The notes under the pieces are model-generated. The model did not search any database. It saw nothing but the letters and a program-made list of their open reading frames with translations, and had not been told where the DNA came from. Both the position numbers and the translations under genes were made by a program. A stretch of 64,000 bases of DNA, taken from an uncultured Christensenella sp. GTDB taxonomy: Bacteria > Bacillota > Clostridia > Christensenellales > CAG-917. The first letter of the stretch is position 1, and every line of letters starts with the position of its first letter. Where the stretch lies: positions 178,431-242,430 of the forward strand of contig CAJTNO010000003.1 in assembly GCA_910577815.1 (NCBI GenBank). The letters run 5' to 3'. Shown here piece after piece: positions 926 through 60,751 of this stretch.

Positions 926-974
926 AGTTATGCTCCCCTTTTGTGGTTAATTTGATTTGTTAGATGTGCTTTTA

Positions 975-1910: not shown

Positions 1911-1923
1911 ATTTTAAACTCCG

Positions 1924-2391
1924 TCAGTCGGCTTTGCCGAGCTTTGCCTTAAGGCTTGCAATCAGACTGTCAAACTCGTCCGCGTCTCCGTCAACGTCTC
2001 CGAATTTCTTTGCGTATACCTTCGACGGCCAGGCTTCGATGTAATCGCCCATTCCGCAAAACATAATCGCTTCCGTTCCGACAAGCCCCTTGCAAATTCT
2101 CTTAAGCGTGTCGTCAATAGTTATTCTGCCCTGCGAATCGAGTTCGATTTTGCAGGTAAGACGATTGACCATTCTCGCCATATCCTTAAATTCGGACATA
2201 TACGGGTCATCGGTTTTGACATAGTTTTTAAGCACCGTATCCTTGTTTTCCTCAGGCATAAGCAAAAAGCATCCGTCCGCGCCTATCGTAGCAATAACGT
2301 CCTCGCCGAGAAAGCTCCTGAACTTAGCGGGAATTCTCACGCGATTTGCGCCTACTGCGTTTTCAAAATTGCCGTAAACAGTCTTTTGCAT
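1924..2391 (-). CDS. mraZ: transcriptional regulator MraZ
   Basis: 155 aa with two half-domains carrying the MraZ motifs (RVRIPAKFR; DSQGRITIDDTLK). First gene of the dcw cluster. RBS AAAGGA upstream. Confidence 0.93.
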   Translation of the reverse strand: MQKTVYGNFENAVGANRVRIPAKFRSFLGEDVIATIGADGCFLLMPEENKDTVLKNYVKTDDPYMSEFKDMARMVNRLTCKIELDSQGRITIDDTLKRICKGLVGTEAIMFCGMGDYIEAWPSKVYAKKFGDVDGDADEFDSLIASLKAKLGKAD

Positions 2392-2428
2392 TGCTCATCC
2401 TTTCGGTGTTTTCAACCTTTATGGCAGT

Positions 2429-2457
2429 ATTGTATCATTCATTTATTATGCTGTCAA
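2429..2457 (-). promoter_or_regulatory. sigma-A type promoter of mraZ (Pmra): TTGACA-17 nt-TACAAT
   Basis: Minus strand reads TTGACAgcataataaatgaatgaTACAAT. The -35 is at 2452-2457, the -10 at 2429-2434, with a 17-nt spacer, about 35 nt upstream of the mraZ ATG. Confidence 0.7.
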
Positions 2458-2458
2458 C

Positions 2459-2478
2459 AAAATTGTCCAAAATTGTCC
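2459..2478 (-). repeat. perfect tandem 10-nt direct repeat (minus strand GGACAATTTT x2) abutting the -35 of Pmra; candidate MraZ operator
   Basis: Forward strand reads aaaattgtcc aaaattgtcc. The 10-bp periodicity matches the known direct-repeat architecture of MraZ boxes. Confidence 0.5.
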
Positions 2479-2689
2479 AATAAATTTTTCAGCTATTTTG
2501 TAGGGTTTTTGAAAAATATACAGTTAACAATTTAACTTTATTGACGGCAAATAATTAACTTGTTAAACAATCCAAAAAAAATCCGCACAGGCTTGAATTC
2601 TTCGTCTTAAACGTAGGAAAAAAATTATAATATAATTATAAATTTTAATTTTTCAATATTCGATTAACTCCCCCGATTTTGTTAAAAAC

Positions 2690-2717
2690 ACAATTTTAAA
2701 ATAAATCTCATATATTG
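2690..2717 (+). promoter_or_regulatory. possible mother-cell (sigma-K/sigma-E-like) promoter: AC-17 nt-CATATATTG
   Basis: AC at 2690-2691, a 17-nt spacer, then CATAtatTg at 2709-2717 (sigma-K consensus AC-N16-17-CATA---TA). It sits ~25 nt upstream of the 2743 ATG. Confidence 0.3.
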
Positions 2718-2742
2718 CAGTAAATAAAAAGGAGGTAAAAAG

Positions 2743-3375
2743 ATGTCTTTTTGCAATAACAATTCTACACAAGACAGATGTCCCGGGAACATCAACGGCA
2801 ATCCGATGAACGGTTTGTGCGAAAAAGTCTGCATTCAGACCACTAAAATATTCGATGCCTGTATGATGCAGACAAGCATTGACAGCACCGTAACGCTCAC
2901 AAACCTCACGCCTGCCGACCCTGTGCAGCCATTGACCTTCGTAAGCGGCTCGTCCACCTCGAGCGTTGGCACTATAACCGCCCTTACCGTCACGCCCATA
3001 GCGGACAGACCGGGACTTTCTCGCGTAACAACCACAATCTCTATACCCATTCAGATTGCCTACACCGACGCAAACGGAGTAGCCGGAACAGGTACAGGTA
3101 CAATTTCCATCAATCAGGACGTAATTATGTGCGTACCCACCGGCAGCGTAATCAGCCCCGTTATTGCCGCAACGGTAAATATGGCGGCGCCCAGAGGCTC
3201 GTATGTCGGCGACAACACATTCTCCATTACATCCTGCGTTACCGTAATTCTCAAGGTTCAGGCGGACGTAAACCTGCTCATTCCCTCTTACGGATATTGC
3301 AGAATTCCGCAATGCACGGAATTCAGTCAGGACGTATGCCAGGGAGTATTCGACTTACCCCTGTTTCCGTCGTAA
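2743..3375 (+). CDS. hypothetical Cys-rich, Thr/Val/Ser-rich protein (possible spore-surface or structural protein)
   Basis: 210 aa behind a strong RBS (aaaaGGAGGtaaaaagATG). Cys-rich N- and C-termini (CPGN..LCEKVCIQTTKIFDAC; YGYCRIPQCTEFSQDVC). No family recognised. Confidence 0.7.
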   Translation: MSFCNNNSTQDRCPGNINGNPMNGLCEKVCIQTTKIFDACMMQTSIDSTVTLTNLTPADPVQPLTFVSGSSTSSVGTITALTVTPIADRPGLSRVTTTISIPIQIAYTDANGVAGTGTGTISINQDVIMCVPTGSVISPVIAATVNMAAPRGSYVGDNTFSITSCVTVILKVQADVNLLIPSYGYCRIPQCTEFSQDVCQGVFDLPLFPS

Positions 3376-3522
3376 GCAACAGCATTAGCAAACCGATTAA
3401 AGTCGTACCGCGCCGCATAGGTCGCGGTACTTTTATAAAGATAAAGTAAAATTATAAAGTATTTTCTGTTTTATTTTGTATTACAGAATTACAGACGGAA
3501 TTTTTATGCTATAGTAATTATT

Positions 3523-4269
3523 ATGAAGATATTTGCCATAAGCGATTTACATCTGTCAAGTGCAGTAGAAAAGCCTATGAACGTATTTGGGAACTCCTGG
3601 GACAACCACTTTGAGAAAATACGCGAGGACTGGATAAATAAGGTCGGCGATAACGACCTTGTTCTGCTTGGCGGAGATATGTCCTGGGGAATGACTATTG
3701 AGCAGGCAAAGCCCGATTACGCGCTCGTATCGGCGCTTAAAGGCAAAAAAATAGTAGTAAAAGGCAATCACGACTTATACTGGAACTCCTTAATTAAAAT
3801 GAAGCAGAATTTCCCCGAATTCGACTTTCTTCAAAACAACGCTTATCGCATACCCGCGCACATTTGTAATGATAAAAATATAACCGATAACGCACAAAAT
3901 GCAAACGGAGCGGTAATTTCGGGTACGCGCGGATGGAATCTGCCCGCAAAGGACTCCGACGAAGCGGATATAAAAATCTATAAGCGAGAGCTGATAAGAC
4001 TTGAGCTGTCGCTTAAGCAAGCGGAAAAGCTGAAACGCGACGGCGACAGGCTGATAGTAATGCTGCACTATCCGCCGTTTGAAGCAAATTTTGCAAGCAC
4101 GGAAATCACCCAACTGCTTGAAAGCTACAAGGCGGACTTTGTTTTATACGGACATCTGCACGGCAAAAACGTAAGAGTAAAGCCGACAGTAGAAAAGGGC
4201 GGAATAACATATCTGCTCACCTCCTGCGACCTTATAGACTATAAGCTTGCGGAAGTCTGTGAAATATAA
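3523..4269 (+). CDS. calcineurin-like metallophosphoesterase
   Basis: 248 aa with the ordered motifs SDLHL, GGDMSW, GNHD, HYPP, GHLHG. Confidence 0.85.
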   Translation: MKIFAISDLHLSSAVEKPMNVFGNSWDNHFEKIREDWINKVGDNDLVLLGGDMSWGMTIEQAKPDYALVSALKGKKIVVKGNHDLYWNSLIKMKQNFPEFDFLQNNAYRIPAHICNDKNITDNAQNANGAVISGTRGWNLPAKDSDEADIKIYKRELIRLELSLKQAEKLKRDGDRLIVMLHYPPFEANFASTEITQLLESYKADFVLYGHLHGKNVRVKPTVEKGGITYLLTSCDLIDYKLAEVCEI

Positions 4270-4433
4270 ATTAAAGCGTTTTATAAGGCTAATTTTCTAA
4301 AATTATTATAAATTTCGACATTTATTAGAATACTTTTAACAATTATTACATTCATATTAAAAAAGAAATCGATTGCTATACAATTTTCTTAATGTTCTGA
4401 CGCCCTAACAAAACTATTTTATTAGCAACAAAT

Positions 4434-5024
4434 TTATTTTGAAAGCAAACTATCTATTTTTGCAAGCACGTCATCCTTACCTGTTTTTGCGCTTGCAGAC
4501 GTCAAAATAATATCCGACACACCCACTCCGAAAGCATTGGCAATCAACTGCCTTGCCTTCATCTGCTGCGAACGCGACAGCTTATCCGCCTTAGTTGCAA
4601 TCAGGGTAAAAGGAGTTCCTGTAGCATATAGATATTTTACCATAATCTTATCGTCCTCGGAAGGCTCGTGTCTGACGTCCACCAACATAAAGACGTTTAT
4701 AAGATTTGGGCTCTTTTGCAAATAGCCTTCTATCAGTCCGCCCCACTTTTGCTTTTCCGTCTTATTTACTTTGGCATAACCGTATCCGGGTAAATCGACA
4801 AAATAATACTCGCCCTTATTTATTTTAAAAAAATTGATTAGTCTTGTACGCCCCGGTTCCGACGAAGTCTTTGCAAGCTTATTCTGATTTGTCATAAAGT
4901 TTATAAAGGAGGATTTTCCCACATTTGATTTACCCGCTATAGCAATCTCGGGCATACCGTAATCGGGAATTTTATCGGCGTCTGCTACCGAAATAACAAA
5001 TTCAGCCTGCTTAATCATTTGCAT
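4434..5024 (-). CDS. engB: ribosome biogenesis GTPase EngB/YsxC
   Basis: 196 aa. G1 GKSNVGKSS, G3 DLPGYG, G4 TKADK. Downstream of clpX as in other Firmicutes. Confidence 0.92.
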   Translation of the reverse strand: MQMIKQAEFVISVADADKIPDYGMPEIAIAGKSNVGKSSFINFMTNQNKLAKTSSEPGRTRLINFFKINKGEYYFVDLPGYGYAKVNKTEKQKWGGLIEGYLQKSPNLINVFMLVDVRHEPSEDDKIMVKYLYATGTPFTLIATKADKLSRSQQMKARQLIANAFGVGVSDIILTSASAKTGKDDVLAKIDSLLSK

Positions 5025-5080
5025 AATCTCCTTTTATAATTATGGCGCGTATTCAAACGCGCCACATTTAACATTACTTA

Positions 5081-6370
5081 TCAACAAGAAATCTTTTCAC
5101 CTGCGGACTCAAACGCCTGTATAATTTCTTCCTCGGACGGTTTTACTCCTCGTACTATAGTCGGCGGTTGCTTTTTCTCGATAGCGTCCTTAGTCACTAT
5201 AACCTGCTCTATGCTCTTATCGGAGGGTATTTCGTACATAAGGTCAAGCAACGCGTCCTCCATAATAGCCCTCAAGCCTCTCGCCCCCGTCTTAAGCTCT
5301 ATTGCCTTAGCCGCAACAGCGCGCAAAGCGTCGCTTTCAAACTCAAGCGTAACTCCGTCAAACTCAAATTGCTTTTTATATTGTTTAACAAGCGCGTTTT
5401 TAGGCTCGGTCAATATTTTTATCAATGCCGTTTCATCCAAAGCGTTCAAGCCTACCACAATCGGCACGCGCCCTACAAATTCGGGTATCAAGCCGTATTT
5501 AACCAGGTCCGAGGGCTGCAAATCCTTTATAAGCTCGTCATAGCGATAGTCCATCGTATCCTTAACAGCCGACCCGAAGCCGAGCTTGGAATTATCCTTG
5601 CGACTGTCAACGATTTTATCCAAATCCACAAAAGCGCCGCCGCAAATAAACAGAATATTTGTTGTGTCAAGCTGATAGCACTCCTGATTGGGATGCTTTC
5701 TTCCGCCTTGAGGAGGCACATTGGCAACGGTCCCCTCTATAATCTTAAGCAACGCCTGCTGTACGCCTTCGCCGCTCACGTCGCGCGTAATAGATACATT
5801 TTCGCCCTTCTTTGCAATTTTATCGATTTCGTCGATATAAACAATACCCGTCTGCGCACGCTTAATATCGTTATCGGCTGACTGTATAAGCTTAAGAAGG
5901 ATATTTTCAACGTCCTCGCCGACATATCCCGCCTCCGTAAGCGTAGTGGCGTCGGCAATAGCAAACGGCACGTTCAATATCTGAGCAAGCGTTTTTGCAA
6001 GCAACGTCTTTCCCGAACCGGTAGGACCAAGCAACAGCACGTTGCTCTTTTCAATGACAACGTCGCCGTCGTTGTTTCCGCCTTGAAGTATGCGCTTAAA
6101 ATGATTGTATACCGCAACGGACAGCACGCGTTTTGCGCTATCCTGTCCGACGATATATTCGTCAAGCTTGTCTTTAATCTCCTGCGGCGGCAATAATTTA
6201 ATATCTCCGGAAGTCTTATTCTCCTTGATATTCATTATATCGATGCAACGCGCAACGCATTCGTTGCAAATACTTATGCCGTCCGGACCGCTTACGATTT
6301 CCTTGACCTCGTGTCCGCACTTATGGCAAAAGCTGCAAACCTGTTCCTTTTGATACTTATCGTTATCCAT
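5081..6370 (-). CDS. clpX: ATP-dependent Clp protease ATP-binding subunit ClpX
   Basis: 429 aa. N-terminal zinc ribbon CSFC..C..ICNEC, Walker A GPTGSGKT, Walker B YIDEIDK. Confidence 0.97.
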
Positions 6371-6432
6371 AAATAAACCTCAATAGATTATCGAAAGTCG
6401 CTATATTTATGCGACCGTTTTTTATATTACGC

Positions 6433-7029
6433 TTATTTTCTGGAGTAGAAAATTTTATCCACAAGACCGTATTTTTCAGCTTCCTCTGCGGTCATATAAA
6501 AATCCCTGTCCGTATCGACCTCGATTTTTGACAGCGGCTGAGATGTATTCTCGGAGAGAATTTCGTTCAAGCGCTTCTTTGTTCTCAAAATCTCGCTCGC
6601 CTGAATAGCTATATCGCTTGCCTGTCCCTGAGCGCCGCCGAGCGGTTGATGTATCATAATCTTGGCGTTAGGCAGAGCAAAGCGCTTGCCCTTAGCGCCG
6701 GACGACAGCAGAAACGCGCCCATAGAAGCTGCCATTCCTATGCAAATTGTGGACACGTCGCACTTTATATAGTTCATCGTATCATAAATAGCAAATCCTG
6801 CAGACACCGAGCCTCCCGGACTGTTTATATAAAGACTGATGTCCTTTGTAGAATCTCTGCCCTCAAGATAAATAAGCTGAGCTACAATCAAATCCGCAAC
6901 GGTATCGTCAATCTCTCCCGTAAGAAAGATTATTCTGTCCTCCAAAAGGCGTGAATAAATGTCGTACGAGCGTTCGCCTCTACCGGTCTGCTCTACTACC
7001 ATAGGGATAAGCTGATTTCTTATATCCAT
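6433..7029 (-). CDS. clpP: ATP-dependent Clp protease proteolytic subunit ClpP
   Basis: 198 aa. ...INSPGGSV..., catalytic-Ser context [20 protein letters not shown]. Confidence 0.97.
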
Positions 7030-7170
7030 TTATAACTCCTCCTGCACAAAAGTTTAAATGCGCATCAGTACACAATTATTGCCACGCAAAGGTGGCAAAT
7101 TATTTCCGACGACTGCAAAACTTACGCTTTGCAATCGCCGACGTTTAAGTTTACACAAAATACGGCAATA

Positions 7171-8622
7171 TTATTCTGCATCTGCGGCTTTAGTTTCCGC
7201 AGATTTTGCCGTCTTTTTGGCAGCGGGCTTCTTTTCTTCGGTTTTCGTGTCGCCGTCCGCCGACTTCTTAGCCGTTGATTTTTTTGCGGGCGCTTTCTTC
7301 TCCGCCGAAGCGCCGTCTGCTCCTTCCGACTTTTTAGCGGACTTTCCGCCATTATAGGATTTAATCTTATCCAAAAGCTTTTCGGAGATAATAGAGTTTA
7401 CCAAATAGTTGATATCCTCCTGACGCATCGTTTTTCTGATTTCCTCAACGGTCTGAGAAGCCTCTTCCGCCATTTTCTCTATGCGCGCGTCAATGTCCTT
7501 ATCCTCGATGCCGATGTTTTCCGCTTTGACTATCTCGTTCATTACAAGACGAGTTTTAACGGTTTTCTCCGCCTGCGGCTTGTATTCATCCGCAAGCTGT
7601 TCGCGAGTCATTCCGAGATACTTGAGATAATCGTCCATACGCATTCCCTGATACATAAGACGATATTCCATATCGTGTATCATCTCGTCCGCTTCCTGCT
7701 TAATCATTGCGTCGGGAATTTCAACGGTGCTTCCCTCAACGATTTTCTCAATGAGAGTATCTTCATACTCGCGCTCCGCTCTCTTTGTTTCCTGCTCTGT
7801 AAGCTTGGATTTTACGTCGCTCTTATATTGCTCGAGCGTATCGAATTCGGATACTTCCTTTGCAAACTCGTCGTCAAGAGCGGGAAGCTCCTTTACGCGC
7901 ACCGCCTTGACGGCGCAAGCAAATATAGCCTCTTTACCCGCCAAATTCTCTGCGTGATACTTCTCGGGGAACGTGACCTTAACATCCTTCTGCTCGCCTG
8001 CTTTTACGCCGATGAGCTGGTCTTCAAAGCCGGGGATAAACGTATTGCTGCCAAGCTCAAGCTCATAGTCCTCCGCCGTTCCGCCGTCAAACTTTTCTCC
8101 GTCAACAGAGCCGCTGTAATCGATTAGCACTAAATCGCCTTTTTCGGCAGCCTTTTCCGCATCGATTATACGCGCCTGCTTGGTCTGCTCTGCCTTTATG
8201 TACTCGTCAACCTGCTCCGCGGTTACCTTTGCCTCGGATTTTTTAACGTCTAAATTCTTATACGCGCCAAGCGTGACGTCGGGCTTGACAACCATTGTCA
8301 ACGCATAAACCACGCTTCCGTCATCCTTTATATCAACGTCCTCAACGCTGCCGAATGCTACAAGCTCGTACTCTCCCGCCTTTTCAAGCTCCATAATGGA
8401 ATCGTCTATAAGCTGATTTATTGCGTCGTTCATAAAAACGCCTGCGCCGTATATGCCCTCTATAACCTTCTTGGGCGCGCGTCCCTTTCTGAAGCCGGGA
8501 ACATTGTATTTGTGCTTTGTCTTGTTATAGACGGTTTCGACTGCCTTATTGTATTCCTCAACGCTTGCAGTGTAATTGAATTTGACTTGGCTTTTTTCAA
8601 GCTTTTCGACTGTATAGTTCAT
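7171..8622 (-). CDS. tig: trigger factor (PPIase) with a Lys/Ala-rich C-terminal tail
   Basis: 483 aa. N-terminal ribosome-binding motif GFRKGRAPKKV and a central FKBP-like domain. The last ~55 aa are AKKS/AKKT-rich. Confidence 0.95.
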   Translation of the reverse strand: MNYTVEKLEKSQVKFNYTASVEEYNKAVETVYNKTKHKYNVPGFRKGRAPKKVIEGIYGAGVFMNDAINQLIDDSIMELEKAGEYELVAFGSVEDVDIKDDGSVVYALTMVVKPDVTLGAYKNLDVKKSEAKVTAEQVDEYIKAEQTKQARIIDAEKAAEKGDLVLIDYSGSVDGEKFDGGTAEDYELELGSNTFIPGFEDQLIGVKAGEQKDVKVTFPEKYHAENLAGKEAIFACAVKAVRVKELPALDDEFAKEVSEFDTLEQYKSDVKSKLTEQETKRAEREYEDTLIEKIVEGSTVEIPDAMIKQEADEMIHDMEYRLMYQGMRMDDYLKYLGMTREQLADEYKPQAEKTVKTRLVMNEIVKAENIGIEDKDIDARIEKMAEEASQTVEEIRKTMRQEDINYLVNSIISEKLLDKIKSYNGGKSAKKSEGADGASAEKKAPAKKSTAKKSADGDTKTEEKKPAAKKTAKSAETKAADAE

Positions 8623-8799
8623 TTTTCCTCCGATACGCGATTGAACGGACGCGTATATAAATAATTTACAAAGTATTTAGGATTATAGCATATAAAAAAG
8701 CAAAAAGCAACTTAAAAAATGACTATTTGCTATCTCTTGGCTATAAATAAGTTAATAAAAGGATTGATAAAAGCAGTCTAAGCTGTTAATATAACTTAT

Positions 8800-10491
8800 A
8801 TGGGTAGCGATTTATTTGCACTTTCCGCACTTGCGCAAGAGCTTAACGCCGCGCTTAGCGGAGCAAGAATAGACAAAATACAACAGCCCGAGACCGACGA
8901 GCTGCGTTTTTTTATGCGCAGCGGAGGCAAAAACGTTTGTCTTGTAGCATCCTGTAACGCTAACGTACCAAGACTGCATTTGACCGATAGCAGAAAACAA
9001 AGCCCTATGACCGCGCCCAACCTGTGTATGCTGCTAAGAAAGTATCTGATAAACGCCTCGGTTGATAGCATCGGCGTATATAATTCCGACAGGATAATAT
9101 ATATCAAGATAAACGCAAAAACGGAAATGCGCGACGACGCGTCGTTTTATCTGTTTGTAGAGATTATGAACAGATATTCCAACATTGTCTTCACCGATGA
9201 AAATCTTATAATTCTCGACGCGGTAAAACATCTGCCCTTAGACTCGGCGCGAGAGCATATTGTAGTGCGCGGAATAAAGTATTCGCCCGTAGCACAACCG
9301 AAAATCAGTTATCTAAACGACTATTTCAGTATTTTTGACAGCTATAACGGAAACAATTTGAAAAAGTTTATACTTGACAACATATCCGGCTTTTCGGGCG
9401 CTACCGTCACGGAGCTGTTGACAAGAGCAAGCATTGACGAAAACGTAAACGAGCTTAGCGCGGATATGCTTGAAAAACTACAAAACGAAATAGAATGCTT
9501 CCGCAGTCATAGCGACCTTACGCCCTGCATAATCAACGGAAACGTATATCCCACGGTTTACCGCAGCTTAGCCGAAGGAGCAGACATTCTTAAATTCAAC
9601 ACTATGAGCGAGGCATACGACGCACTCAACACTAATATAGACAATGAAATACGAAATAAAGTAAGACTCAAAGGAATTTCAAACCGGGCAAAGCGACTTC
9701 ACGCGAGAGTGGAAAAGAATATTCAGATAGACCTTGAGCATCTGAAAGAATGCGAAGCTATGGACAAATTCAGGATTTTCGGAGAACTTATAGTTAGCAA
9801 TATTTACAAGCTAAATCGCGGCGATACCGAGCTTGAGTGCACCAACTACTATGATAACACTATTGTAAAAATTCCGCTTGACGCAAAGCTCTCTCCTTCA
9901 AAAAACTCCGCGGCTTACTATAATAAGTACAATAAACTTAAAAGGACAAAGGAGTTTGCAGAAAAAAAACTCGTTGACGACAATAATCTATTGTCATACG
10001 TTTGCTCCATCGAGGATGAAATTGCAAGCCTGCCCTACGGCGCAAGCATAAAGCCAATAGAGGACGAGTTGTCCGCGCTTGGCGGAGGCATCAAGAAATC
10101 GTCAAAGAATAAGGTACGCAAGGAACAGGCAGAGCCTCCCTATGTGTATTTGGTGGACGGTTTTTATATTTATCGCGGGAAAAACAATCTTCAAAACGAA
10201 GAAATTACTTTTAAGCTTGCATCGTCCTGCGATATTTGGATGCATCTGAAAAACGACCACGGCGCGCATACCGTTATCATTACCGAAGGGAGAGAAGTTC
10301 CCGACAAAGTAATTAAAATAGCAAGCGAGATTACGGCAAGCACAAAGCAAGCATCTTCAAACGTTGACTATACCGCGCGTCGGAATGTTAAACGTCAGCC
10401 GAACGGACACCCCGGACAGGTCATTTACGAAAATTATAAAACCGTTTTGGCAACGCCCGACAGCCATAGCGAGTATTTGATAAAATCTTAA
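8800..10491 (+). CDS. rqcH: ribosome quality-control protein RqcH (NFACT / FbpA family)
   Basis: 563 aa. NFACT-N start (..LNAALSGARIDKIQQPETDELRF..), a coiled-coil middle, and a C-terminal NFACT-R/DUF814-like region (DIWMHLKNDHGAHTVI). Confidence 0.85.
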   Translation: MGSDLFALSALAQELNAALSGARIDKIQQPETDELRFFMRSGGKNVCLVASCNANVPRLHLTDSRKQSPMTAPNLCMLLRKYLINASVDSIGVYNSDRIIYIKINAKTEMRDDASFYLFVEIMNRYSNIVFTDENLIILDAVKHLPLDSAREHIVVRGIKYSPVAQPKISYLNDYFSIFDSYNGNNLKKFILDNISGFSGATVTELLTRASIDENVNELSADMLEKLQNEIECFRSHSDLTPCIINGNVYPTVYRSLAEGADILKFNTMSEAYDALNTNIDNEIRNKVRLKGISNRAKRLHARVEKNIQIDLEHLKECEAMDKFRIFGELIVSNIYKLNRGDTELECTNYYDNTIVKIPLDAKLSPSKNSAAYYNKYNKLKRTKEFAEKKLVDDNNLLSYVCSIEDEIASLPYGASIKPIEDELSALGGGIKKSSKNKVRKEQAEPPYVYLVDGFYIYRGKNNLQNEEITFKLASSCDIWMHLKNDHGAHTVIITEGREVPDKVIKIASEITASTKQASSNVDYTARRNVKRQPNGHPGQVIYENYKTVLATPDSHSEYLIKS

Positions 10492-48332: not shown

Positions 48333-48361
48333 ATTAAAAATAAATTCGGCTTAACGCCGAA
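48333..48361 (-). terminator. intrinsic terminator closing the four-gene SipW/McrB-like operon
   Basis: Minus strand reads TTCGGCgttaaGCCGAAtttatttttaatc. It lies 38 nt after the stop of the last gene. Confidence 0.6.
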
Positions 48362-48398: not shown

Positions 48399-49091
48399 CT
48401 ATTTTTCGTCACCGCCGTCTTTATTCCGCGACGTTAAAATCTCATCCAACAAACGCTTCTTTTGCTCGTCCGTAAGGTTATCAATAGAGCTTGCGTCAAG
48501 CTTAGCCGACTTGGATTTTTCCGCCGCGACCTTATCCTGCACAAATCCTACAATAATAAGTACTCCCACAATACTCAAAGGTAAAGCGATAAGCAAAACA
48601 TATCCGTACCAATGGCTTAAAAATCTTCTGAGCCCTCCGATAAATACGGATTTACGCACAAATTTAGCTTTAACCGAATCGGGACTGAGCTGCCAGTTGT
48701 CAACGCCGACGTTGGGATTGTCGCCCTTGGTTATAAAATACTCCACGGCTCCGTTCTCCGCACGGTGAACCTCTATTATTCTATGAGTAATATTCTGCCC
48801 CTTAAGCACGCCGCTCGGAGCGACAAAGGTGATTATATCCCCCTCTTTTAACGCGTTTTTGTCGTCAATGCTCTTGCAAAGAATGACGTCCGCAGGCTCG
48901 ATAGTTCCCGACATACTGTCCGTAACCACGTCGTACATATAATATCCGAAAATCTTAGAATCTCCGCCGTTCTTGCGTTGCGCAAGCATCAAGGATACAA
49001 TCACAACCAAAAATACAAAAATCACCGCAATAATCGTTGTGGATACAATGTTGTATATTTTCTTTGCTTTGGTCGGTTGCGGCTTGCTCAT
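48399..49091 (-). CDS. SipW-type (S26B, Ser/His/Asp) signal peptidase I, paralog 2
   Basis: 230 aa. N-terminal TM helix, TDSMSGTIEP (Ser), ITHRII (His), KGDNP (Asp), a C-terminal TM helix and a ~45-aa cytosolic tail. Its start codon is 2 nt after the stop of the 751-aa gene. Confidence 0.85.
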   Translation of the reverse strand: MSKPQPTKAKKIYNIVSTTIIAVIFVFLVVIVSLMLAQRKNGGDSKIFGYYMYDVVTDSMSGTIEPADVILCKSIDDKNALKEGDIITFVAPSGVLKGQNITHRIIEVHRAENGAVEYFITKGDNPNVGVDNWQLSPDSVKAKFVRKSVFIGGLRRFLSHWYGYVLLIALPLSIVGVLIIVGFVQDKVAAEKSKSAKLDASSIDNLTDEQKKRLLDEILTSRNKDGGDEK

Positions 49092-49093: not shown

Positions 49094-51349
49094 TTATTCT
49101 TTGCCCTCGCCGCTACCGTCCTCTGCTTTTTTTGCGCCGTCCTTAGCAGTATTTGAATGCGGTTGCTCCGTACCGTTTGATATTTCCGCTTTGCTTTTAA
49201 GGTTGGCGGGACGCTTTCTTCCCGTATTTGCAACAAACATAGTGTCGTATGGCAACTGACTGCCGTCGGTAAATCGAATAGAGCCGATACCAACCTTGCT
49301 TTCGTCTACGACGTCTATTTTTTTCGGGCGCTTCGGTTTAGCGGGAGTAATGTCCGCTTTGGGTTTATTCGTAGTTTGCGGATTCTTACGGTTACTCGGT
49401 TTTTTCTCCTCTTTTACCTCTTTGTTATCGCCGACTTCGGCAACATCCTTCTCTGCCGCAAGCTCCTCCGCAACCTCTGATTTTTCAGATAAAGCTTCAG
49501 CTTTATCTTCCGTAGAGCTATTCTCTACGGTTTCAGGCGCATTCAAGTCCTCGCTTGTTTGCGCAATATTTATATCCTGCAACACGTCGTCAGAAATGTT
49601 TTCTCCGGTATTTTCTTCTACTGCGACGCCTTCCTGCTCGGCTGTCTTTGCCGTCTCCAATTCCTCAAGCTTTCTTCTGCGCTCCTCGGCAAGCACGGCT
49701 TCCTTCTTTTCCGCGGCAATCTTTGCGCGCTGATATCCAAACGGGTCAATGCCGAAGCGAAGTTTACTCTTATCCTCCGCCGTCACCGTCTGCTCCAGCT
49801 CCTTACGCAGTTTATTATAGGACTCCGCACGCTTAGCCATATCCTCTTTACGGCGGCGTATACGATAGTTCCTATCCTTCTCGTCAACCTCGTCCTGCTT
49901 GATAGTACGGTATGCATTAAGACAACGGTCGATAGCGTCCTTAACCTTGGAAATATCCTCGGCTGTAAGTCTGTCGTCCTCGGGCTTCTTGTAAAGCTTT
50001 CTTACTTCAAACAGATGCTTATCGAATTTATCGGCGTCATCGTCGATATCGGGCTCCTCCTGGTCGGCTTTAGGCGGCATTTCCTTTATAATCTCCACCT
50101 CTACGCGCTTTTCGACCTCTACCTCCTGCACTATCTCCTTGCCGCGCTTGGACTGCTCCTGCGGAGTAAATTCCGGCTGCTGCTCAGGCTCCTTTTCGGG
50201 TTCCTTTTTCGGCTCAATCTCATCGGGCTGCTCGGTGGGCGCAGGCTCGTCGTTCTCATTCTTATGCGTTTCCTCGAGATTGTCCTTTTCGTCCTCGTTT
50301 TCCAGCTGCTCGTCTAACTTTTGAGCAAACTCGTCGCGGTTGAGCTCGTCCTTTTCAAAGTCCATTTCTCCCACGCGCAGGAAATCGCCGAACTCCTTGT
50401 CCTCCATATCCAAATCGGTCTCGTGCTGGTCGTACATACTTTCAAAAAGCATAGTATTTAAGGTGACCATATTCTTGAGTTCGTCTACGCTTTCGCCGTC
50501 TATGTCATAATCCTCCACCTCGTCGGAGGTAGAAAAACCGCCCGATACGTTATAGGTTTCTATAAACTGCCACAGCGTAAGCGCCTTTTTAAAGTTAGGC
50601 TCCTTCAATATGACGTTTGTACGCATAATGGGCGGTCTCACGGGCGCGGAATTGCGCATAGATTTTGCAAAAGAGGATGATAAAAAGTCGGTTATAATTC
50701 TGTCTATTTTGGCAACGCGCTCGATTTTAGTCAAGGTCTCCGGGTCAAGGCGCATTACCTCGTCAAAGCTGAGCTGAGCAAAATATTCCGTTCGGAAGGT
50801 AACCTTTTTACTTGGCAGACTAAAGCGCGACTCCACGTCCAACGCCAACACGTCCTGCGTTGCGGATGCCTTTTTGATTTTGTCGTAGCGCATAGTGACA
50901 AAATCCTTAAGCTTTAACAGCAAGGTGTATATAAAGCGGTTTTCGTAAATCTCGAATGATTCTTCCTTTGTAATATTAAGTATCTTGCTTGGCGTAACCA
51001 TTCCGTCCTTATCGACCTTGGAAATCATATTGGTATGCTGCGCGAGAAACTTGACCGATTCGGTAGAGATACTTCGTGCAAGCGATACGTCCACGATATC
51101 CTCTTCCTGAACGATAAACTTACGCGGATTACGCACAATCGTATCGAGATTAGGCAAAATTTCTTCTATTGTATCAATCCAATCAATGGAAATGTCCTGT
51201 ATAAGCCTTTTTTTTGCAAGCTTAAAGCTTGACGAGCCTTTATCGACGCGCTTTTTAAACTGCTCGTAAAACTCCTCGTTTTTCAGAACGGATACAATCT
51301 TATGAGCGTATTGCTTATATACGTCTTTTGTGATTTGGTTATCTGCCAT
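49094..51349 (-). CDS. 751-aa hypothetical protein: folded N-terminal ~270 aa in the McrC position with no nuclease motif seen, ~330 aa of Glu/Asp/Lys-rich low complexity, then a basic Lys/Pro tail
   Basis: RBS GGAGAG. No signal peptide or TM helix. ..EESFEIYENRFIYTLLLKLKDF.. recalls the N-terminal helix of McrC-type partners. I could not find a hydrophobic-(D/E)xK nuclease core. The central region reads EQLENEDEKDNLEETHKNENDEPAPTEQPDEIEPKKEPEKEPEQQPE... Confidence 0.8.
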   Translation of the reverse strand: MADNQITKDVYKQYAHKIVSVLKNEEFYEQFKKRVDKGSSSFKLAKKRLIQDISIDWIDTIEEILPNLDTIVRNPRKFIVQEEDIVDVSLARSISTESVKFLAQHTNMISKVDKDGMVTPSKILNITKEESFEIYENRFIYTLLLKLKDFVTMRYDKIKKASATQDVLALDVESRFSLPSKKVTFRTEYFAQLSFDEVMRLDPETLTKIERVAKIDRIITDFLSSSFAKSMRNSAPVRPPIMRTNVILKEPNFKKALTLWQFIETYNVSGGFSTSDEVEDYDIDGESVDELKNMVTLNTMLFESMYDQHETDLDMEDKEFGDFLRVGEMDFEKDELNRDEFAQKLDEQLENEDEKDNLEETHKNENDEPAPTEQPDEIEPKKEPEKEPEQQPEFTPQEQSKRGKEIVQEVEVEKRVEVEIIKEMPPKADQEEPDIDDDADKFDKHLFEVRKLYKKPEDDRLTAEDISKVKDAIDRCLNAYRTIKQDEVDEKDRNYRIRRRKEDMAKRAESYNKLRKELEQTVTAEDKSKLRFGIDPFGYQRAKIAAEKKEAVLAEERRRKLEELETAKTAEQEGVAVEENTGENISDDVLQDINIAQTSEDLNAPETVENSSTEDKAEALSEKSEVAEELAAEKDVAEVGDNKEVKEEKKPSNRKNPQTTNKPKADITPAKPKRPKKIDVVDESKVGIGSIRFTDGSQLPYDTMFVANTGRKRPANLKSKAEISNGTEQPHSNTAKDGAKKAEDGSGEGKE

Positions 51350-51429: not shown

Positions 51430-52944
51430 TCAGAACAGCTTTTTCAATCTGTTGATATACTCCTTGCTCTCCTGCATATTTTCCTCGCCGAACAGCTCGC
51501 TGAGATACAGCACAAGCCCGTCTATTTCGTCGCGGATATAGGACAGGTTAAGCGACTCGAACTTTCTGAAAATCTTATTGCAAAGCACGTAATCCAGTCC
51601 ATCGAGTTCGTTTCCGCCGCAACCTACGTAAGAAGGAACAAACTCCTTAAGCTGCTTTACGATACGGTTGCCGAACGCCAGTCGGAAATGCTCTATAACA
51701 TAATCGTCCAGCTGATTTATCTTGTCAAGATTGTCCTGCGACACCTTATACAACTCCTGCGACTTTTTAAACTCAGCCTCGAGGTGCTTATAGCTTATAA
51801 ACAGATTGTCCTCCCAAGGCGCCTCGAATGCGATACCCTTGCTGTTTATGTTGATAGGCATAGCACGGTCGTAAACCTTATCCGAGATAGCAAAGGTCGA
51901 GTCGTCGTTGTTTGCGGTGCCTATAAACCACATATTCTGCGGAAGCTGAAATCTGCCCTTTTCAATATGCTTGGGGTCGTTCGGCCAGCCTGACGGAACA
52001 AGGTCGACAATCCACTCGTCGCGCGAGGGCATTTCGAGTATGGACAGCATTTCCGCAAAGTAGTACTCTACACGCGCTATATTCATTTCGTCGAGAACGG
52101 TAAGATAAATCTGGTCGTTCCAGGTAGCCTCGTACATCTTTTTAAGCACCTCGGTTTCATTGAAGCGCTTTGTAAATTCGTTGAAGTAGCCGAACAGCTC
52201 CGTACGGTCTCTCCAGGACGGCTGAACCGACGCAATCGTTGCGGGATTGTTTAAGAAAATTCCCATCGCGTGCGGCAAAGAGGTTTTACCCGTACCTGAT
52301 ATACCCTGCAAAATCAACAGGCGCGACGTCGACAGACTTGCAACAAACAGCCTTATTATTCGCGGCTGATAAAACAGCTTCATACGCGAGCAGGCAAAGT
52401 TACGGAACTTATCGCAAAACTGCGGTAGAGTAATTTCGTCGTCGTAAACGGGCGGAACGTAATTTTCGTAAATCTTATCGATTTCGGTAAGCTTATAAAA
52501 ACGCGATTCTCCGCTTGGGCTTTTCTCCTTGCCTTCCTCGCCCTCGGGCGCTTCCTCACCCTCGTACTTTCCTATGTCGCTGACGCGCATAGAAAGTATG
52601 CGGTCCTTTTCCGCACTCATTTTAATAATCTGCTTTTTAAGGTTGGCGCACTCCTCTACTAAGTCCTGCGGCAATACCTTTGCCTTGCCAAGCTTGGCAA
52701 GCTTGCGAAGTCCAAGCGCGATAAGCACTATTATGGACACTATTACGGCAACGATTAGTATAATGAAAATTATAGCGACAGCCCATTCGCCCGCACCGAA
52801 GTACTGAGTATAATTCTTGAATGCGTCGGAATACCCATCATTATAAAAGATGTGTAAAAAACCCCAGAAAATACTACCTAATCCCTTGTCGTAAAACGCT
52901 CCTAAAAACGCTTTAAGAAACTCAAATACAAGATTGATATTCAT
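51430..52944 (-). CDS. membrane-anchored McrB-like AAA+ (AAA_5-type) NTPase
   Basis: 504 aa. TM helix AVAIIFIILIVAVIVSIIVLIALGL followed by RKLAKLGKAK, a coiled linker, Walker A LQGISGTGKTS, McrB-style Walker B/NxxR region LTVLDEMNIARVEYYFAEMLSILE, then FIGTANNDDSTFAISDKVYDRA. Confidence 0.8.
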   Translation of the reverse strand: MNINLVFEFLKAFLGAFYDKGLGSIFWGFLHIFYNDGYSDAFKNYTQYFGAGEWAVAIIFIILIVAVIVSIIVLIALGLRKLAKLGKAKVLPQDLVEECANLKKQIIKMSAEKDRILSMRVSDIGKYEGEEAPEGEEGKEKSPSGESRFYKLTEIDKIYENYVPPVYDDEITLPQFCDKFRNFACSRMKLFYQPRIIRLFVASLSTSRLLILQGISGTGKTSLPHAMGIFLNNPATIASVQPSWRDRTELFGYFNEFTKRFNETEVLKKMYEATWNDQIYLTVLDEMNIARVEYYFAEMLSILEMPSRDEWIVDLVPSGWPNDPKHIEKGRFQLPQNMWFIGTANNDDSTFAISDKVYDRAMPININSKGIAFEAPWEDNLFISYKHLEAEFKKSQELYKVSQDNLDKINQLDDYVIEHFRLAFGNRIVKQLKEFVPSYVGCGGNELDGLDYVLCNKIFRKFESLNLSYIRDEIDGLVLYLSELFGEENMQESKEYINRLKKLF

Positions 52945-53080: not shown

Positions 53081-54088
53081 TTATTCGGCTTTATCCGCAT
53101 CGATACCATCGCCGATTACGTCGACCTTCTGTTCGGGCGCGGCGCTGCCTTCAGACTCTGCATTTTCAACTTCGGTCGCAATTTCGCCGCTTTCCGAATT
53201 CTCGACGTTCTCCACACTCTCGGAAGTAGAATCTGCAACGTCGGCTTCCGATTTTTGAGATGCCAAAAGCTGCGCGATAAGCGCCTGCTTTTCCTCCTCG
53301 GTCATTGCGTCAACGGAAATAGCCGTCTCTCCCGCAACCTTCTTTTCTTTTTCGAGCTTGGCAATAATGAGCGTGCGCACCAAAATAAACGCGTAAATAA
53401 CAAACAGCAATATAAGCGGCAGCACAATCAAACAGAAAAAGCGGGTTTTGCCGTGTATGGGATGCTGCATAAAGTTTGCAAGACCGCCCACTCCCTTGAG
53501 CATTTTACCGCTTGTAAAATTCAGATTTTCGTCAACATCGCCCCAGGTTGCCACTACATCGCCGACAACCACCTTGCGCAAATCCCAGGAGGATTGGTCA
53601 ACTGCGGACATATCGTCCCCGTCCTTTACGGCGCAATCCTGCCAGTTTCCCTCCTGATTGTCGCCCCTCGTACGTAAAGCGGCAACCGAACCGTCCTTAT
53701 TCCTTTCGATAGCTACTAATCTGTGTGAATTAAACTCGTCGTAGCTGTCGCCGTTTTCGTATGTACGGACAAACTTAAACGTAATGACCTGACCGACCTT
53801 CAAGTCGGAGCCGTCTCCTTCATAGGCTTTGGCAATTATAACGTCGTCTGTGTCGAAAGTGGGCTTCATCGAATCCGACGCGACGTTAAAATAGCAATTA
53901 TCGCCCACACGGGTTATCTTATCGGGATTGGTAGAGCGGATTATAGTAAAAATCGCCACCACTAAAGCAAAAATAATCAAAATTATACAAAGGACGTTAA
54001 CAGTCCAGTTAAGCGCAATCTTGACCTTTTGTTGCGTAGGCGTAAGCTCCTTCTTCTCATTTTGAGAAGACTTTTCAAACAGTTTCAT
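53081..54088 (-). CDS. SipW-type (S26B, Ser/His/Asp) signal peptidase I, paralog 1, with a long acidic C-terminal tail
   Basis: 335 aa with the RBS AAGGAG. N-terminal TM helix, ASDSMKPTFD (Ser), NSHRLV (His), RGDNQ (Asp), a C-terminal TM helix (aa ~216-243), then ~90 aa of Glu/Ser-rich tail. Confidence 0.85.
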   Translation of the reverse strand: MKLFEKSSQNEKKELTPTQQKVKIALNWTVNVLCIILIIFALVVAIFTIIRSTNPDKITRVGDNCYFNVASDSMKPTFDTDDVIIAKAYEGDGSDLKVGQVITFKFVRTYENGDSYDEFNSHRLVAIERNKDGSVAALRTRGDNQEGNWQDCAVKDGDDMSAVDQSSWDLRKVVVGDVVATWGDVDENLNFTSGKMLKGVGGLANFMQHPIHGKTRFFCLIVLPLILLFVIYAFILVRTLIIAKLEKEKKVAGETAISVDAMTEEEKQALIAQLLASQKSEADVADSTSESVENVENSESGEIATEVENAESEGSAAPEQKVDVIGDGIDADKAE

Positions 54089-54273: not shown

Positions 54274-54302
54274 ATTATAAAAGATTTCGTACACTATGTC
54301 AA
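54274..54302 (-). promoter_or_regulatory. perfect consensus sigma-A promoter TTGACA-17 nt-TATAAT driving the four-gene operon
   Basis: Minus strand reads TTGACAtagtgtacgaaatctttTATAAT. The -35 is at 54297-54302 and the -10 at 54274-54279. The first ATG of the operon is ~185 nt downstream. Confidence 0.75.
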
Positions 54303-54357: not shown

Positions 54358-54392
54358 GTTTTAAAATGAAAAGCACCCGCCTTCGGGTGCTT
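54358..54392 (-). terminator. intrinsic terminator after the EF-G paralog, insulating it from the downstream operon promoter
   Basis: Minus strand reads AAGCACCCGaaggCGGGTGCTTttcatttt. Confidence 0.8.
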
Positions 54393-54422
54393 TCGTTATT
54401 TAAGCTATAAATAATGTCTGTT

Positions 54423-58846: not shown

Positions 58847-60751
58847 CTACTCCTGCGAAGTATTCTTTCTTTGCTTATGACGATAGATTACAACCGCGGC
58901 AACCGCAAAAGCAAACACCGATACTATAACGCCCACTACTATAGTAAATATTTTTAATTCGTAAGTGCGTGCATAATCCGCCTTTCGTCCCCCGACAATA
59001 AAGCGCGCCGCCTTACCTTCAAAGCCGTTTACCTCGATTTCAATTTCATAGGTGCCCTTCTGAGTAGGCGTAAAATCGAAGCTATTTCCCTTATGATTGT
59101 AAACTCCGTTTACAAACCACAGACAATTATCGGCATCCTCCTTGGGTATATAATTAAGACTGTCAACGGTCAGCTTATAAGTTTTTCCGACCTCGCAACC
59201 GGACAAATCCTTTAACGGATTTCCGTTTAAGCTTGCGCTTATTTCAAATGAGGATACATTCTCTGCCGTGACAAGCATATATCCAACGGATATTCCTACG
59301 CTTGCCTCTTTTACTGCTTCCTCGCCGTGTTCGTCACAGCTATGCCGCCAAACCGCTCTAATCTCCGTATCGCCTACAACCGGCTTAGGCATATACGACG
59401 CTTCAAAGCCTTCCGCAAATTTATCCTCTCCCGCAAACCACTCTACCTTACCCTGTCCGTAATGCGACAATGGCACAACGCTCAGTTTTAAAGGTATAGC
59501 TTTTAAAGCTCCCAAACGTTGTTTTAACAACGAAACGTCTGCCGTTTCGATTTTTGCCTCGCACATTGTATATCCTATTAACGCATTTAAATCAAAAATC
59601 CTGCAATCGCCTACCGTCTTTCCACCCTCGGTTTTATTAAGAACCTTAGTCGAAGCTTTTTTCACGAGTCTTGCAAGCTCAACGGAATCCATTTCCTCGC
59701 CGTTATTTCCCGCCAACGCCTTATATTTCATTGCAAGCAGCGCCGCGCCGAATGACACTATCGGAGCAGCCATACTTGTTCCCGACAGAGCTTTATAATC
59801 AAATCCGCTATCGCCAATCACACCGTTTGCGCTGTATATATCAGCCCCCGGAGCGCACAAATCATATCCGTAGGTATTCCAAAAGCCGTAATTTGACGTA
59901 TTACTCAAAACCGCTTCGCCGTTTACGTTCTTGTAGTTCATAACTCCTATAACATTAGGAAGCGCCGCAGGATAACGCTTGACCTCGCTTCCGTCATTCC
60001 CTGCCGCGGCAACAAGCACAGCTTTGGTATGCGCCGTGGACTGGTCCAAGCCCGCAAACGTCCTCGCATCAGACGATAACGACATATTTATTACGTCAGC
60101 GCCCTGCTGTAAGGCAAAATCGACGGCGCTTTTAACGTCAGCGCCCGAAAATTTATCCTCTCCCGTAAATGCTACGTGATAGGACGCTTTTATAGGCAGA
60201 ATTTTTATATATCGCTCTATATTAAGGGCGTGTATCAATGTTGCCACAATGCCTGCAACGTGCGTGCCGTGCCTTCTGTTTTCATCATCGGACACATCGT
60301 TCTCGGTATATATGGAGGGATTATGCGACACTGCTGTATTCTTAACAATAGGCGTGCCGTCTGACCTGCGCAATATTACGTCGTATTTCCCTGTTCCGTT
60401 GTTATCTACGGCTTCGTTATCCGTAAGCCCGCCGTCATTGTATTTCCCGCTAAACAGCTCGTGCTCAAGATTTACTCCGCTATCTATTACAGCTATGACA
60501 ACAGGATTATCTTCAAGATATTTAAAATCAAAAGAATCGTCCTGCTTCCAGTCTTCAACCGCAGCTTTAAGTCCGTCTATTCCTATTACGTCCGACCACC
60601 AGTCAAGCTCCTGATTTTGCACCTTATCCACATAACTAATCGGCAAAAGAGCGTCGGCAATTTCATAAGAAAACAAAAATGTAAGAATTGCGCTTAAAGC
60701 AAACGCAATTAAGAATACATATAGAGCTTTTCGCTTAAAACTGCTATGCAT
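58847..60751 (-). CDS. cell-surface subtilisin-family (S8) protease with N-terminal signal/anchor and C-terminal TM anchor
   Basis: 634 aa. VIAVIDSGV, HGTHVAGIV, GTSMAAPIV. A beta-rich (Ig-like?) C-terminal region is followed by the TM helix IFTIVVGVIVSVFAFAVAAVVIY and RHKQRK. Confidence 0.88.
   Translation of the reverse strand: MHSSFKRKALYVFLIAFALSAILTFLFSYEIADALLPISYVDKVQNQELDWWSDVIGIDGLKAAVEDWKQDDSFDFKYLEDNPVVIAVIDSGVNLEHELFSGKYNDGGLTDNEAVDNNGTGKYDVILRRSDGTPIVKNTAVSHNPSIYTENDVSDDENRRHGTHVAGIVATLIHALNIERYIKILPIKASYHVAFTGEDKFSGADVKSAVDFALQQGADVINMSLSSDARTFAGLDQSTAHTKAVLVAAAGNDGSEVKRYPAALPNVIGVMNYKNVNGEAVLSNTSNYGFWNTYGYDLCAPGADIYSANGVIGDSGFDYKALSGTSMAAPIVSFGAALLAMKYKALAGNNGEEMDSVELARLVKKASTKVLNKTEGGKTVGDCRIFDLNALIGYTMCEAKIETADVSLLKQRLGALKAIPLKLSVVPLSHYGQGKVEWFAGEDKFAEGFEASYMPKPVVGDTEIRAVWRHSCDEHGEEAVKEASVGISVGYMLVTAENVSSFEISASLNGNPLKDLSGCEVGKTYKLTVDSLNYIPKEDADNCLWFVNGVYNHKGNSFDFTPTQKGTYEIEIEVNGFEGKAARFIVGGRKADYARTYELKIFTIVVGVIVSVFAFAVAAVVIYRHKQRKNTSQE

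Follow-up and report, generated by a model that had tools for sequence, protein, structure and literature searches.

A nuclease-less McrC homologue encoded beside an McrB-like GTPase and two SipW-like peptidases in an uncultured Christensenella sp.

McrBC is the textbook GTP-dependent restriction enzyme, and a McrC-like protein without a nuclease raises the question of what it does for its partner GTPase. This question is posed by a locus of an uncultured Christensenella sp. (assembly GCA_910577815.1), within a stretch of 64,000 nucleotides (contig CAJTNO010000003.1, positions 178,431 to 242,430) that is called the window below. There, a 751-aa open reading frame (ORF), P0001, was found at 49094..51349 of the minus strand; the plus-strand frame of the same interval contains many stops. 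An earlier note, made from the sequence, had described the product as a protein in the position of McrC, with a globular N-terminal part, no nuclease motif and a very large charged region of low complexity. We analyzed the protein, its partner genes and its relatives to ask what it is and what it may do.

The McrC N-terminal domain and the missing nuclease

The Pfam family DUF2357 (PF09823), the N-terminal domain of McrC, matched residues 7-161 of the protein with 32.9 bits against a cut-off of 23.3 (E 5.2e-8), and was found in 58 of 80 family members (E<=1e-4). An AlphaFold2 model built on 131 homologues contained a mixed alpha/beta domain at residues 1-311 (50417..51349, minus strand), in which the predicted local distance difference test score (pLDDT) was mostly 85-98. 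Residues 1 to about 270, which are 37% hydrophobic over 1-270, had been taken to be globular; this was borne out, and the domain extends to 311 because a confidently predicted helix at 285-311 belongs to it. When 48,161 representative chains of the Protein Data Bank (PDB) were searched with VIA-align, McrC chains came out at ranks 1 and 2: 6ut5_G of T. gammatolerans (Z 8.9, root-mean-square deviation (rmsd) 4.0, 137 residues aligned) and 6hz4_M of E. coli (Z 8.6, 141 residues aligned). With the Pfam match above its cut-off and McrC chains as the top two structural matches, the earlier placing of the protein at the McrC position was upheld. A Foldseek search of the full-length model against the PDB returned nothing at E<=0.001, probably because the disordered two-thirds of the model spoil a global search, and the protein matched no PADLOC or NCBIfam model.

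Among 117 close homologues, the N-terminal domain was 86-96% identical, with a median of 91%. In an alignment of 131 sequences reaching about 22% identity, occupancy was near 1 over residues 1-310 and nine columns were invariant, including W57, Y135-E136-N137, P240, T244 and N245. We are confident that residues 1-311 are the McrC N-terminal (DUF2357) domain and that the protein is a true McrC relative.

What is missing here is the nuclease half of McrC. In the AlphaFold2 model, no beta strand was predicted after residue 281, so there is no space for the alpha/beta core of a PD-(D/E)xK nuclease. Hydrophobic-(D/E)-x-K strings occurred only three times (315, 378 and 488), all in helical or disordered sequence, and across the 131 sequences the acidic residue was conserved in at most 27% and the lysine in at most 21%. 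PD-(D/E)xK families matched neither the McrC-like protein nor any of the 80 relatives scanned, and scans with Pfam, NCBIfam and PADLOC found no nuclease family in any of the four proteins of the gene unit described below. The statement that the protein has no nuclease was thus correct, and structure prediction and profile searches, by which the earlier note held that it could be refuted, revealed no intact PD-(D/E)xK or other known effector domain.

The rest of the protein had been described as a charge-rich region of low complexity at about 280-610, with short repeats. The charge was confirmed, as residues 271-640 contain 30.5% D+E and 15.4% K+R and have a net charge of -56 (-43 for the whole protein). 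A uniform low complexity was not, because the region begins with the helix 285-311 of the N-terminal domain and holds a conserved helical module at 438-572. Nor were the repeats found, since no 5-mer recurs in the protein and no tandem DNA repeat was detected in the variable part of the gene. The so-called low-complexity region is three parts: an acidic Pro-rich insertion, a conserved helical module and a disordered tail.

The insertion (residues 312-437, 50039..50416, minus strand) was mostly disordered, with a mean pLDDT of 39-60 per 10-residue block, block means mostly below 50 from residue 359 onward and single-residue values mostly below 50 over 329-436, and contained two short helices (315-324 and 341-355). 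Occupancy across 311-440 was mostly 0.2-0.6 in the 131 relatives (0.82 at 351-360), which indicated that the insertion is missing from most of them. The helical module (residues 438-572, 49634..50038, minus strand) consists of helices 438-452, 463-521, 524-530 and 536-572, with pLDDT 82-90 over 461-520. Its residues 441-480 are kept family-wide, with an occupancy of at least 0.92 in 131 sequences and the pattern D..E.RK ... AIDR.L. Structural matches of the module were generic long helices only, namely single-helix and coiled-coil structures; the long helices 463-521 and 536-572 are the candidates for a coiled coil, with a crude heptad count of only 0.5-0.75.

The tail (residues 573-751, 49097..49633, minus strand) had a pLDDT of essentially below 50. 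Tails of the 117 close homologues were 22-54% identical (median 34%) and 373-907 aa long, and those of distant relatives had lengths between about 90 and 1100 residues, of which 28-56% were charged, many of these tails being K/E-rich repeats that resemble single alpha-helices or coiled coils. The Lys/Pro-rich patch noticed earlier at about 640-700 is real (25% K+R and 7 Pro over 641-700). It was delimited to residues 649-677 and is followed at 678-705 by the linear motif IDVVDESKVGIGSIRFTDGSQLPYDTMF, patch and motif together lying at 49235..49405 of the minus strand. The possibly folded end that had been suspected after the patch was not supported, since pLDDT is below 50 there; what is conserved instead is this short motif, which was found with the loose regular expression [VILT][DN]x x[KR][VIL]x[VIL][GD] in 113 of 120 close homologues. 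KPRKPRK-type patches precede it in close homologues too, and it is duplicated in some proteins. The same expression matched 3 of 147 distant representatives, one of them off-target at residue 336. Being clade-specific, the motif is not the core function of the family.

Two relatives with other C-terminal parts were noticed. P0165 (652 aa) and P0167 (453 aa) carry unrelated pieces after DUF2357, AAA_15 with an OLD-type TOPRIM (a nuclease-type domain) in one and NTP_transferase in the other, and may be gene fusions or chimeric contigs. Among the representatives with an internal domain (P0257, P0266, P0268 and P0250), no McrB-McrC fusion was found.

Gene partners and distribution of the module

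The McrC-like gene is the third of four genes on the minus strand, in the order pepA, McrB-like gene, McrC-like gene, pepB. The SipW-like peptidase pepA, the 'upstream' paralogue, lies at 53081..54088 (335 aa), the McrB-like AAA+ GTPase gene at 51430..52944 (504 aa), 80 nt upstream of the McrC-like gene, and the SipW-like peptidase pepB, the 'downstream' paralogue, at 48399..49091 (230 aa). The McrC-like stop and the pepB start are arranged as TAA-AA-ATG, confirming the 2-nt gap reported before; the stoichiometric co-production deduced from it is only an inference. By pattern matches, a promoter-like site at 54274..54302 (minus strand; TTGACA-17-TATAAT, matching the sigma-70-like consensus at 12 of 12 positions) and a terminator-like hairpin after pepB at 48345..48361 (minus strand) would frame the four genes as one unit. 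The unit is flanked by housekeeping genes, EF-G-like on one side and comM, dprA, topA, trmFO, hslVU and hisS on the other.

A protein of 751 aa with the identical sequence has been recorded (P0002), and contigs of other mouse-gut samples covered the ORF at about 99% identity, three of which (X12, X13 and X2) list no internal indel. By this identical protein and these intact ORFs, an assembly or frameshift artefact, a concern raised earlier for the low-complexity region, was rejected. Near-identical DNA was present in mouse-gut samples of 6 studies. Contigs from two metatranscriptomic runs of one sample, about 99% identical to the unit, extended over every one of its 30 bins, which is compatible with transcription of the unit.

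Some further features of the surroundings were recorded. The contigs X12, X13 and X2, from other samples, miss one base at 52951, in the spacer between pepA and the McrB-like gene, leaving coding unaffected. A perfect palindrome with a 10-bp stem (6 GC pairs) at 54370-54393, between the EF-G-like gene and the promoter-like site, is probably the terminator of the EF-G-like gene. A few kb from the module, a 634-aa ORF (58847-60751, minus strand) contains, by eye, subtilisin-like catalytic strings as well as a hydrophobic N-terminal segment and a C-terminal transmembrane (TM) anchor; no connection with the module was seen in relatives.

The McrB-like protein matched NCBIfam McrB at 6.6e-7, far under the cut-off of the model, and PADLOC PDC-M26A at 8.8e-37, over the AAA core only. 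Its N-terminus comprises an amphipathic segment, one TM helix followed by basic residues, and a juxtamembrane coiled-coil-like helix whose pattern DLVEE.A.LK.Q...L..EKDRIL.LKV is conserved in 12 orthologues. Walker A (GISGTGKTS), Walker B (LDEMN) and GTANNDDST, a GTPase signature readable as NxD or NxxD, were invariant in the same 12 orthologues. The trees of the McrB-like and McrC-like proteins had 11 of 18 bipartitions in common; after shuffling, the mean was 0.3 and the maximum 3.

Among the peptidases, pepB matched NCBIfam SipW at 3.6e-25 and sigpep_I_arch (TIGR02228) with 68.8 bits, over the cut-off of 51.85, and pepA matched sigpep_I_arch at 2.7e-11 and SipW at 3.9e-10, both under the cut-off. 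In 30 aligned peptidases, S59, M60 and H103 (pepB numbering) were invariant and Gly-Asp nearly so; from the invariant Ser-Met and His columns, the peptidases look active. Each contains two TM segments, one N-terminal and one C-terminal (32-50 and 219-237 in pepA), which by hydropathy and charge would place the C-terminal tail in the cytoplasm. A helix of the type EEIKxKAIEEYL was recognized by eye in this tail in 27 of 38 peptidases, its versions in the window being TEEEKQALIAQLL in pepA and TDEQKKRLLDEIL in pepB. In a tree of 28 peptidases from L014-L031 plus the pair of the window, all 14 members of the lineage found downstream of McrC-like genes were on one branch (support 100/99), and pepA fell in the lineage found upstream of McrB-like genes. 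The lineages follow gene position, suggesting that two paralogues have been kept since before the loci diverged. A prediction of the complex of the pepB tail (176-230) with the McrB-like (85-504) and McrC-like (1-330) proteins scored 0.00 (mark 0.32, without controls) and speaks neither for nor against binding.

Neighbouring ORFs in 20 larger loci of relatives were clustered into families. McrB-like and McrC-like genes were adjacent or near-adjacent in all 20 loci, and SipW-like genes numbered two in 17 loci, one in 2 and none in 1. A family here called fam5 (260-407 aa) was present in 15 of the 20; its members start with a basic N-tail in the cytoplasm, have one TM helix and carry on the outside a domain that ends in W(L/I)EG.D..C.D.I.GG. 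Nine loci encoded secreted proteins, called AWFS proteins after a signal peptide that ends ..S(T)ATYAWFS. A relationship between the two families is probable, because the AWFS profile also matches fam5 ORFs in their C-terminal half. In a sample of 201 genomes of the window's order, of which 35 have a McrC-like match, 20 of the 22 fam5-positive genomes and 19 of the 20 AWFS-positive ones were among these 35, in counts where related genomes are not independent; the exceptions were genomes 75% and 86% complete.

The AWFS protein was modeled with pLDDT 82.6 and a predicted template modeling score (pTM) of 0.80 from 99 sequences. Its best structural match among the 48,161 chains was the TasA fibre 8aur (Z 7.0, rmsd 4.0, 150 residues aligned), the next scoring 5.8; FimA, the cannula protein CanA, RrgB, CfaB and archaeal AbpA followed. 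With Foldseek, TasA was only at rank 24 (E 1.2e-2). The nearest named Atlas cluster was Peptidase_M73 for both AWFS (0.87) and fam5 (0.85), values that serve as leads only.

ORFs with an EAL domain were found in 13 of the 20 loci (L016, L018-L020, L023-L026, L028-L032), and 9 were confirmed by Pfam. Short EAL genes directly precede fam5, and often the stop codon of the one overlaps the start codon of the other; in L026 and L028 an EAL gene stands between the McrB-like and McrC-like genes. When the catalytic motifs ExLxR, DDFGTGY and EGVE were searched as regular expressions, none of the three was matched by 12 of the 14 shorter EAL ORFs in the list, among them that of the present genome; the two exceptions were both in L032. 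The short ORFs that lack the motifs include ones coupled to fam5. Downstream of pepB, the three long EAL proteins, of 762-795 aa, had ExLxR and DDFGTGY, and two of these also EGVE. In relatives, fam5, AWFS and EAL genes stand directly beside the module. In the present genome they are on contig C5 (L040, G000), the AWFS gene at 4971-5966, fam5 at 6374-7582 and the EAL gene at 7648-9351 (Pfam EAL 2.9e-17). A jackhmmer search from one EAL domain missed this divergent EAL protein, which Pfam finds. The C5 cluster adjoins recA and an open-ended surface protein of >1500 aa (1-4621).

Neighbouring ORFs were also scanned with PADLOC. Of 96 ORFs, 4 were set aside because they ran past the end of a locus and 6 because they were shadow ORFs of module genes, and 81 of the remaining 86 were unmatched at 1e-10. 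The five matches look like housekeeping cross-matches: ShosA/PsyrA and DpdF fell at the positions of dprA and topA beside comM, and the RecD-type, PsyrT and mad3 matches were judged housekeeping from the model names alone. By gene content, the neighbourhoods are not defence islands.

The N-domain used as a query found 1746 proteins at E<=0.001 in a collection clustered at 90%, and, among 50% representatives, 1470 clusters at E<=0.001 and 471 at E<=1e-30. Relatives are labelled Christensenellales or Clostridia. McrC-like matches were present in 23 of 119 genera in the sample of the order and in 3 of 8 genomes of the window's family, this genome counted; some genomes had two or three, and 39 of 40 matches were free of internal stops. 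A single-protein query at 1e-10 gave no match in 400 further genomes drawn from across the phylum. One of two other genomes of the same genus, 98% complete, had no McrC-like match and carried unrelated genes upstream of comM. This patchy presence, with 35 of 201 genomes positive and a gap within the genus, marks the module as accessory and not housekeeping. A housekeeping role, considered because of the neighbouring comM, dprA and topA genes, was rejected since the module was not found in that 98%-complete genome.

In a module-negative genome of the same family (G036), a lone SipW-like gene stands directly upstream of comM (L039 836-1477), at the comM-side place that the module has here, and its tail is without the helix motif (one example). 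It could be a remnant or mark an integration hot spot.

A proposed function and its rivals

What is new at these loci is that the module co-occurs with fam5, TasA-like secreted proteins and EAL proteins, and that its peptidases are ancient paralogues, most of which have the tail helix. From this company, we consider it fairly probable that the McrC-like protein is a GTPase-activating adaptor of a cytoplasmic motor that controls the assembly of a surface fibre. In solved McrBC structures, the DUF2357 domain enters the McrB hexamer and activates its GTPase (cited in Bell et al., eLife 2024). By analogy, the DUF2357 domain of the present protein would insert in a hexameric ring of the McrB-like protein at the cytoplasmic face of the membrane and stimulate the GTPase. 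The charged arm that stands in place of the nuclease may serve as a spacer or tether, or dimerise as a coiled coil; helical module and tail would together form a length-variable tether or docking arm and not an effector enzyme. Judging from gene linkage, this ring and plug would act on the cytoplasmic ends of pepA, pepB and/or fam5, the motor would time cleavage, polymerisation or release of a TasA-like fibre, and it would probably be under the control of cyclic di-GMP (c-di-GMP).

A more specific form of the proposal is tentative, and we hold it to be possible and no better than that. Here, the McrBC chassis would have been rebuilt as a GTP-driven, c-di-GMP-gated motor that times the release of TasA-like subunits by two SipW-type peptidases, with the McrC-like protein as the ring-activating plug and its hypervariable arm as a tether or ruler reaching the cytoplasmic tails of the peptidases or fam5. 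If true, this would be an inside-out assembly or release of a Gram-positive fibre powered by nucleoside triphosphate (NTP), without a described counterpart. To the best of our knowledge, TasA-type fibres are currently held to assemble without a cytoplasmic energy source, and a dedicated GTPase module would alter this picture for little-studied mouse-gut Clostridia with genomes of 1-2 Mb. If the module works with TasA-like subunits and c-di-GMP proteins, a DNA-translocating defence motor would have been re-used for a cell-surface structure. The extended gene set (EAL, fam5, TasA-like protein, peptidase, McrB-like, McrC-like, peptidase) offers a testable parts list.

Several observations weigh against this proposal. 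The McrC structural match, at Z of about 9, is barely above the noise from helical bundles (rank 3 at Z 8.2), and with so small a margin over helical proteins it backs the Pfam call and does not stand alone; when the family alignment was compared by hhalign with the one E. coli McrC sequence, no match resulted (probability 0.1 over 15 columns). The TasA match of the AWFS protein (Z 7.0) is in the middling range of the tool, and neither fam5 nor the AWFS protein was matched in Pfam or NCBIfam, Pfam Peptidase_M73 included. Because module-linked genes served to build the fam5 and AWFS profiles, these may miss divergent homologues in module-negative genomes and so inflate the co-occurrence, and the present genome has its fam5, AWFS and EAL genes away from the module, on another contig. 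The contigs from RNA libraries may stem from DNA. Finally, a conflict system is as compatible with the patchy distribution as an accessory surface structure is, and up to three matches per genome together with hypervariable tails fit either.

In one alternative, the protein would serve as adaptor in an anti-phage system, or another conflict system, that arose from Type IV restriction; the membrane-anchored complex of the McrB-like and McrC-like proteins would sense infection, and the peptidases, or membrane damage, would replace the nuclease as effector. Descent from the McrBC restriction system is in keeping with it, as are the match of the McrB-like protein to a PADLOC model termed 'phage defence candidate', the occurrence of several matches in some genomes of a patchy distribution, and a fast-evolving tail on a conserved core. 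The PADLOC match, however, is confined to the AAA core, the other three proteins have no meaningful match to a defence model, and the library scans found no nuclease, toxin or other known effector family. The neighbours are housekeeping, EAL and secreted-protein genes, nearly all without a PADLOC match, and fam5, AWFS and two peptidase paralogues are tightly co-retained, with all partners but EAL exported or membrane proteins. We regard a defence role as unlikely on this evidence.

Somewhat less likely still is a nucleic-acid-binding tether, in which the Lys/Pro patch would bind DNA or RNA, in keeping with the DNA-directed origin of McrBC, and so connect the membrane complex with the nucleoid or with a transcript. 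In its favour are the basic patch at 649-677, the 25% K+R over 641-700 and the KPRKPRK-type patches before the linear motif in close homologues, and the sister class CoCoNuT is predicted to target RNA by Bell et al. (eLife 2024). Against it, the net charge is -43 overall and -56 over 271-640, Pfam, NCBIfam and the structure search found no nucleic-acid-binding family or fold, and patch and motif are limited to the close clade (3 of 147 distant representatives, one off-target), so they do not serve the core function of the family. Binding of the tail to teichoic acid, which had also been put forward, is unlikely because the McrC-like protein has no signal peptide and the GTPase domain of its partner is predicted to be cytoplasmic. 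That the protein is merely a decaying McrC remnant, without a function of its own and retained by its place in the operon, seems very improbable. Its nuclease domain is lost and its tail tolerates large indels, but the N-domain stays 86-96% identical in 117 homologues despite tails at 22-54%, nine columns do not vary among 131 sequences with identities as low as about 22%, 1470 representative clusters exist at E<=0.001, and 39 of 40 matches have no internal stop. Fibre assembly or its regulation is the function that we favour, on the basis of gene linkage and middling structural scores.

Comparison with known systems

The protein is not the orphan oddity it had seemed, since its class has already been named in print. 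SipA of S. pyogenes, which serves below as a point of comparison for the peptidases, is not known to have the catalytic Ser and His. Bell et al. (eLife 2024) name CoCoPALM in one paragraph and two supplement rows and defer its analysis; in those passages, CoCoPALM has GTPases fused to an FtsB-like TM and coiled-coil domain (the FtsB likeness having an HHpred E-value of 1.2), an association with the signal peptidase family, and coiled coils on McrB and McrC homologues. The same passages liken the CoCoPALM peptidases to SipA, a pilus assembly factor (HHpred 8.1e-8). Like CoCoPALM, the unit studied here has an McrB-like GTPase with an N-terminal TM segment and a coiled-coil-like helix, and a DUF2357 McrC homologue with long helices, adjoining signal-peptidase genes. 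It differs in that both peptidases keep the catalytic Ser and His, whereas the naming passages draw the likeness to SipA. The links to fam5, TasA-like proteins, EAL proteins and peptidase tails do not appear in the CoCoPALM passages, and the words TasA and SipW are absent from the paper. On its predicted features, the four-gene unit fits the description of the CoCoPALM class. In a full-text search, no further analysis was found beyond the naming paper and its preprint, and the protein is a new member of a class that has been named and for which we found no published analysis.

Canonical McrC (6hz4 of E. coli K-12 and 6ut5 of T. gammatolerans) shares with the present protein the DUF2357 N-domain and a gene directly downstream of the McrB-like gene. 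In canonical McrBC the nuclease dimerises; here there is no PD-(D/E)xK domain, and an extra 440 residues of charged helical or disordered sequence are present instead. The partner GTPase also differs, in that it is membrane-anchored and without a DNA-binding N-domain, and sequence similarity to E. coli McrC is not detectable by hhalign. The CoCoNuT class (CnuB/CnuC) is likewise a McrBC derivative with coiled coils, and some CnuC proteins have inactivated nucleases according to Bell et al. (eLife 2024). Its tandem nucleases and its HEPN, cold-shock, zinc-ribbon and Hsp70-like domains were not found in the present unit, whose partners are membrane and secretory proteins.

In the LapD/LapG system, a surface adhesin is controlled by c-di-GMP from inside out. 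The loci described here resemble it by genetically coupling mostly motif-less EAL proteins to extracytoplasmic proteases and a surface protein; the components are not homologous, so that the likeness would be a functional analogy only.

The closest comparison for the secreted partners is with tapA-sipW-tasA of B. subtilis and sipW-bsaA-bsaB-bsaC of C. perfringens. These operons share with the present loci a dedicated SipW-type peptidase and secreted subunits whose cleavage region is rich in aromatic residues (here ..TATYAWFSS..), TasA being also the best structural match. TasA has Phe at P2' and requires SipW, as stated in PMC10269814. In PMC11580942, BsaA is described to polymerise by donor-strand exchange, and SipW is proposed to cut after an oligomer has captured a membrane-anchored monomer, a proposal that shows how fibre growth could depend on when cleavage takes place. 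The two operons have one peptidase and no cytoplasmic NTPase, whereas the loci described here combine two peptidases with cytoplasmic tail helices, the McrB-like/McrC-like pair, fam5 and EAL proteins.

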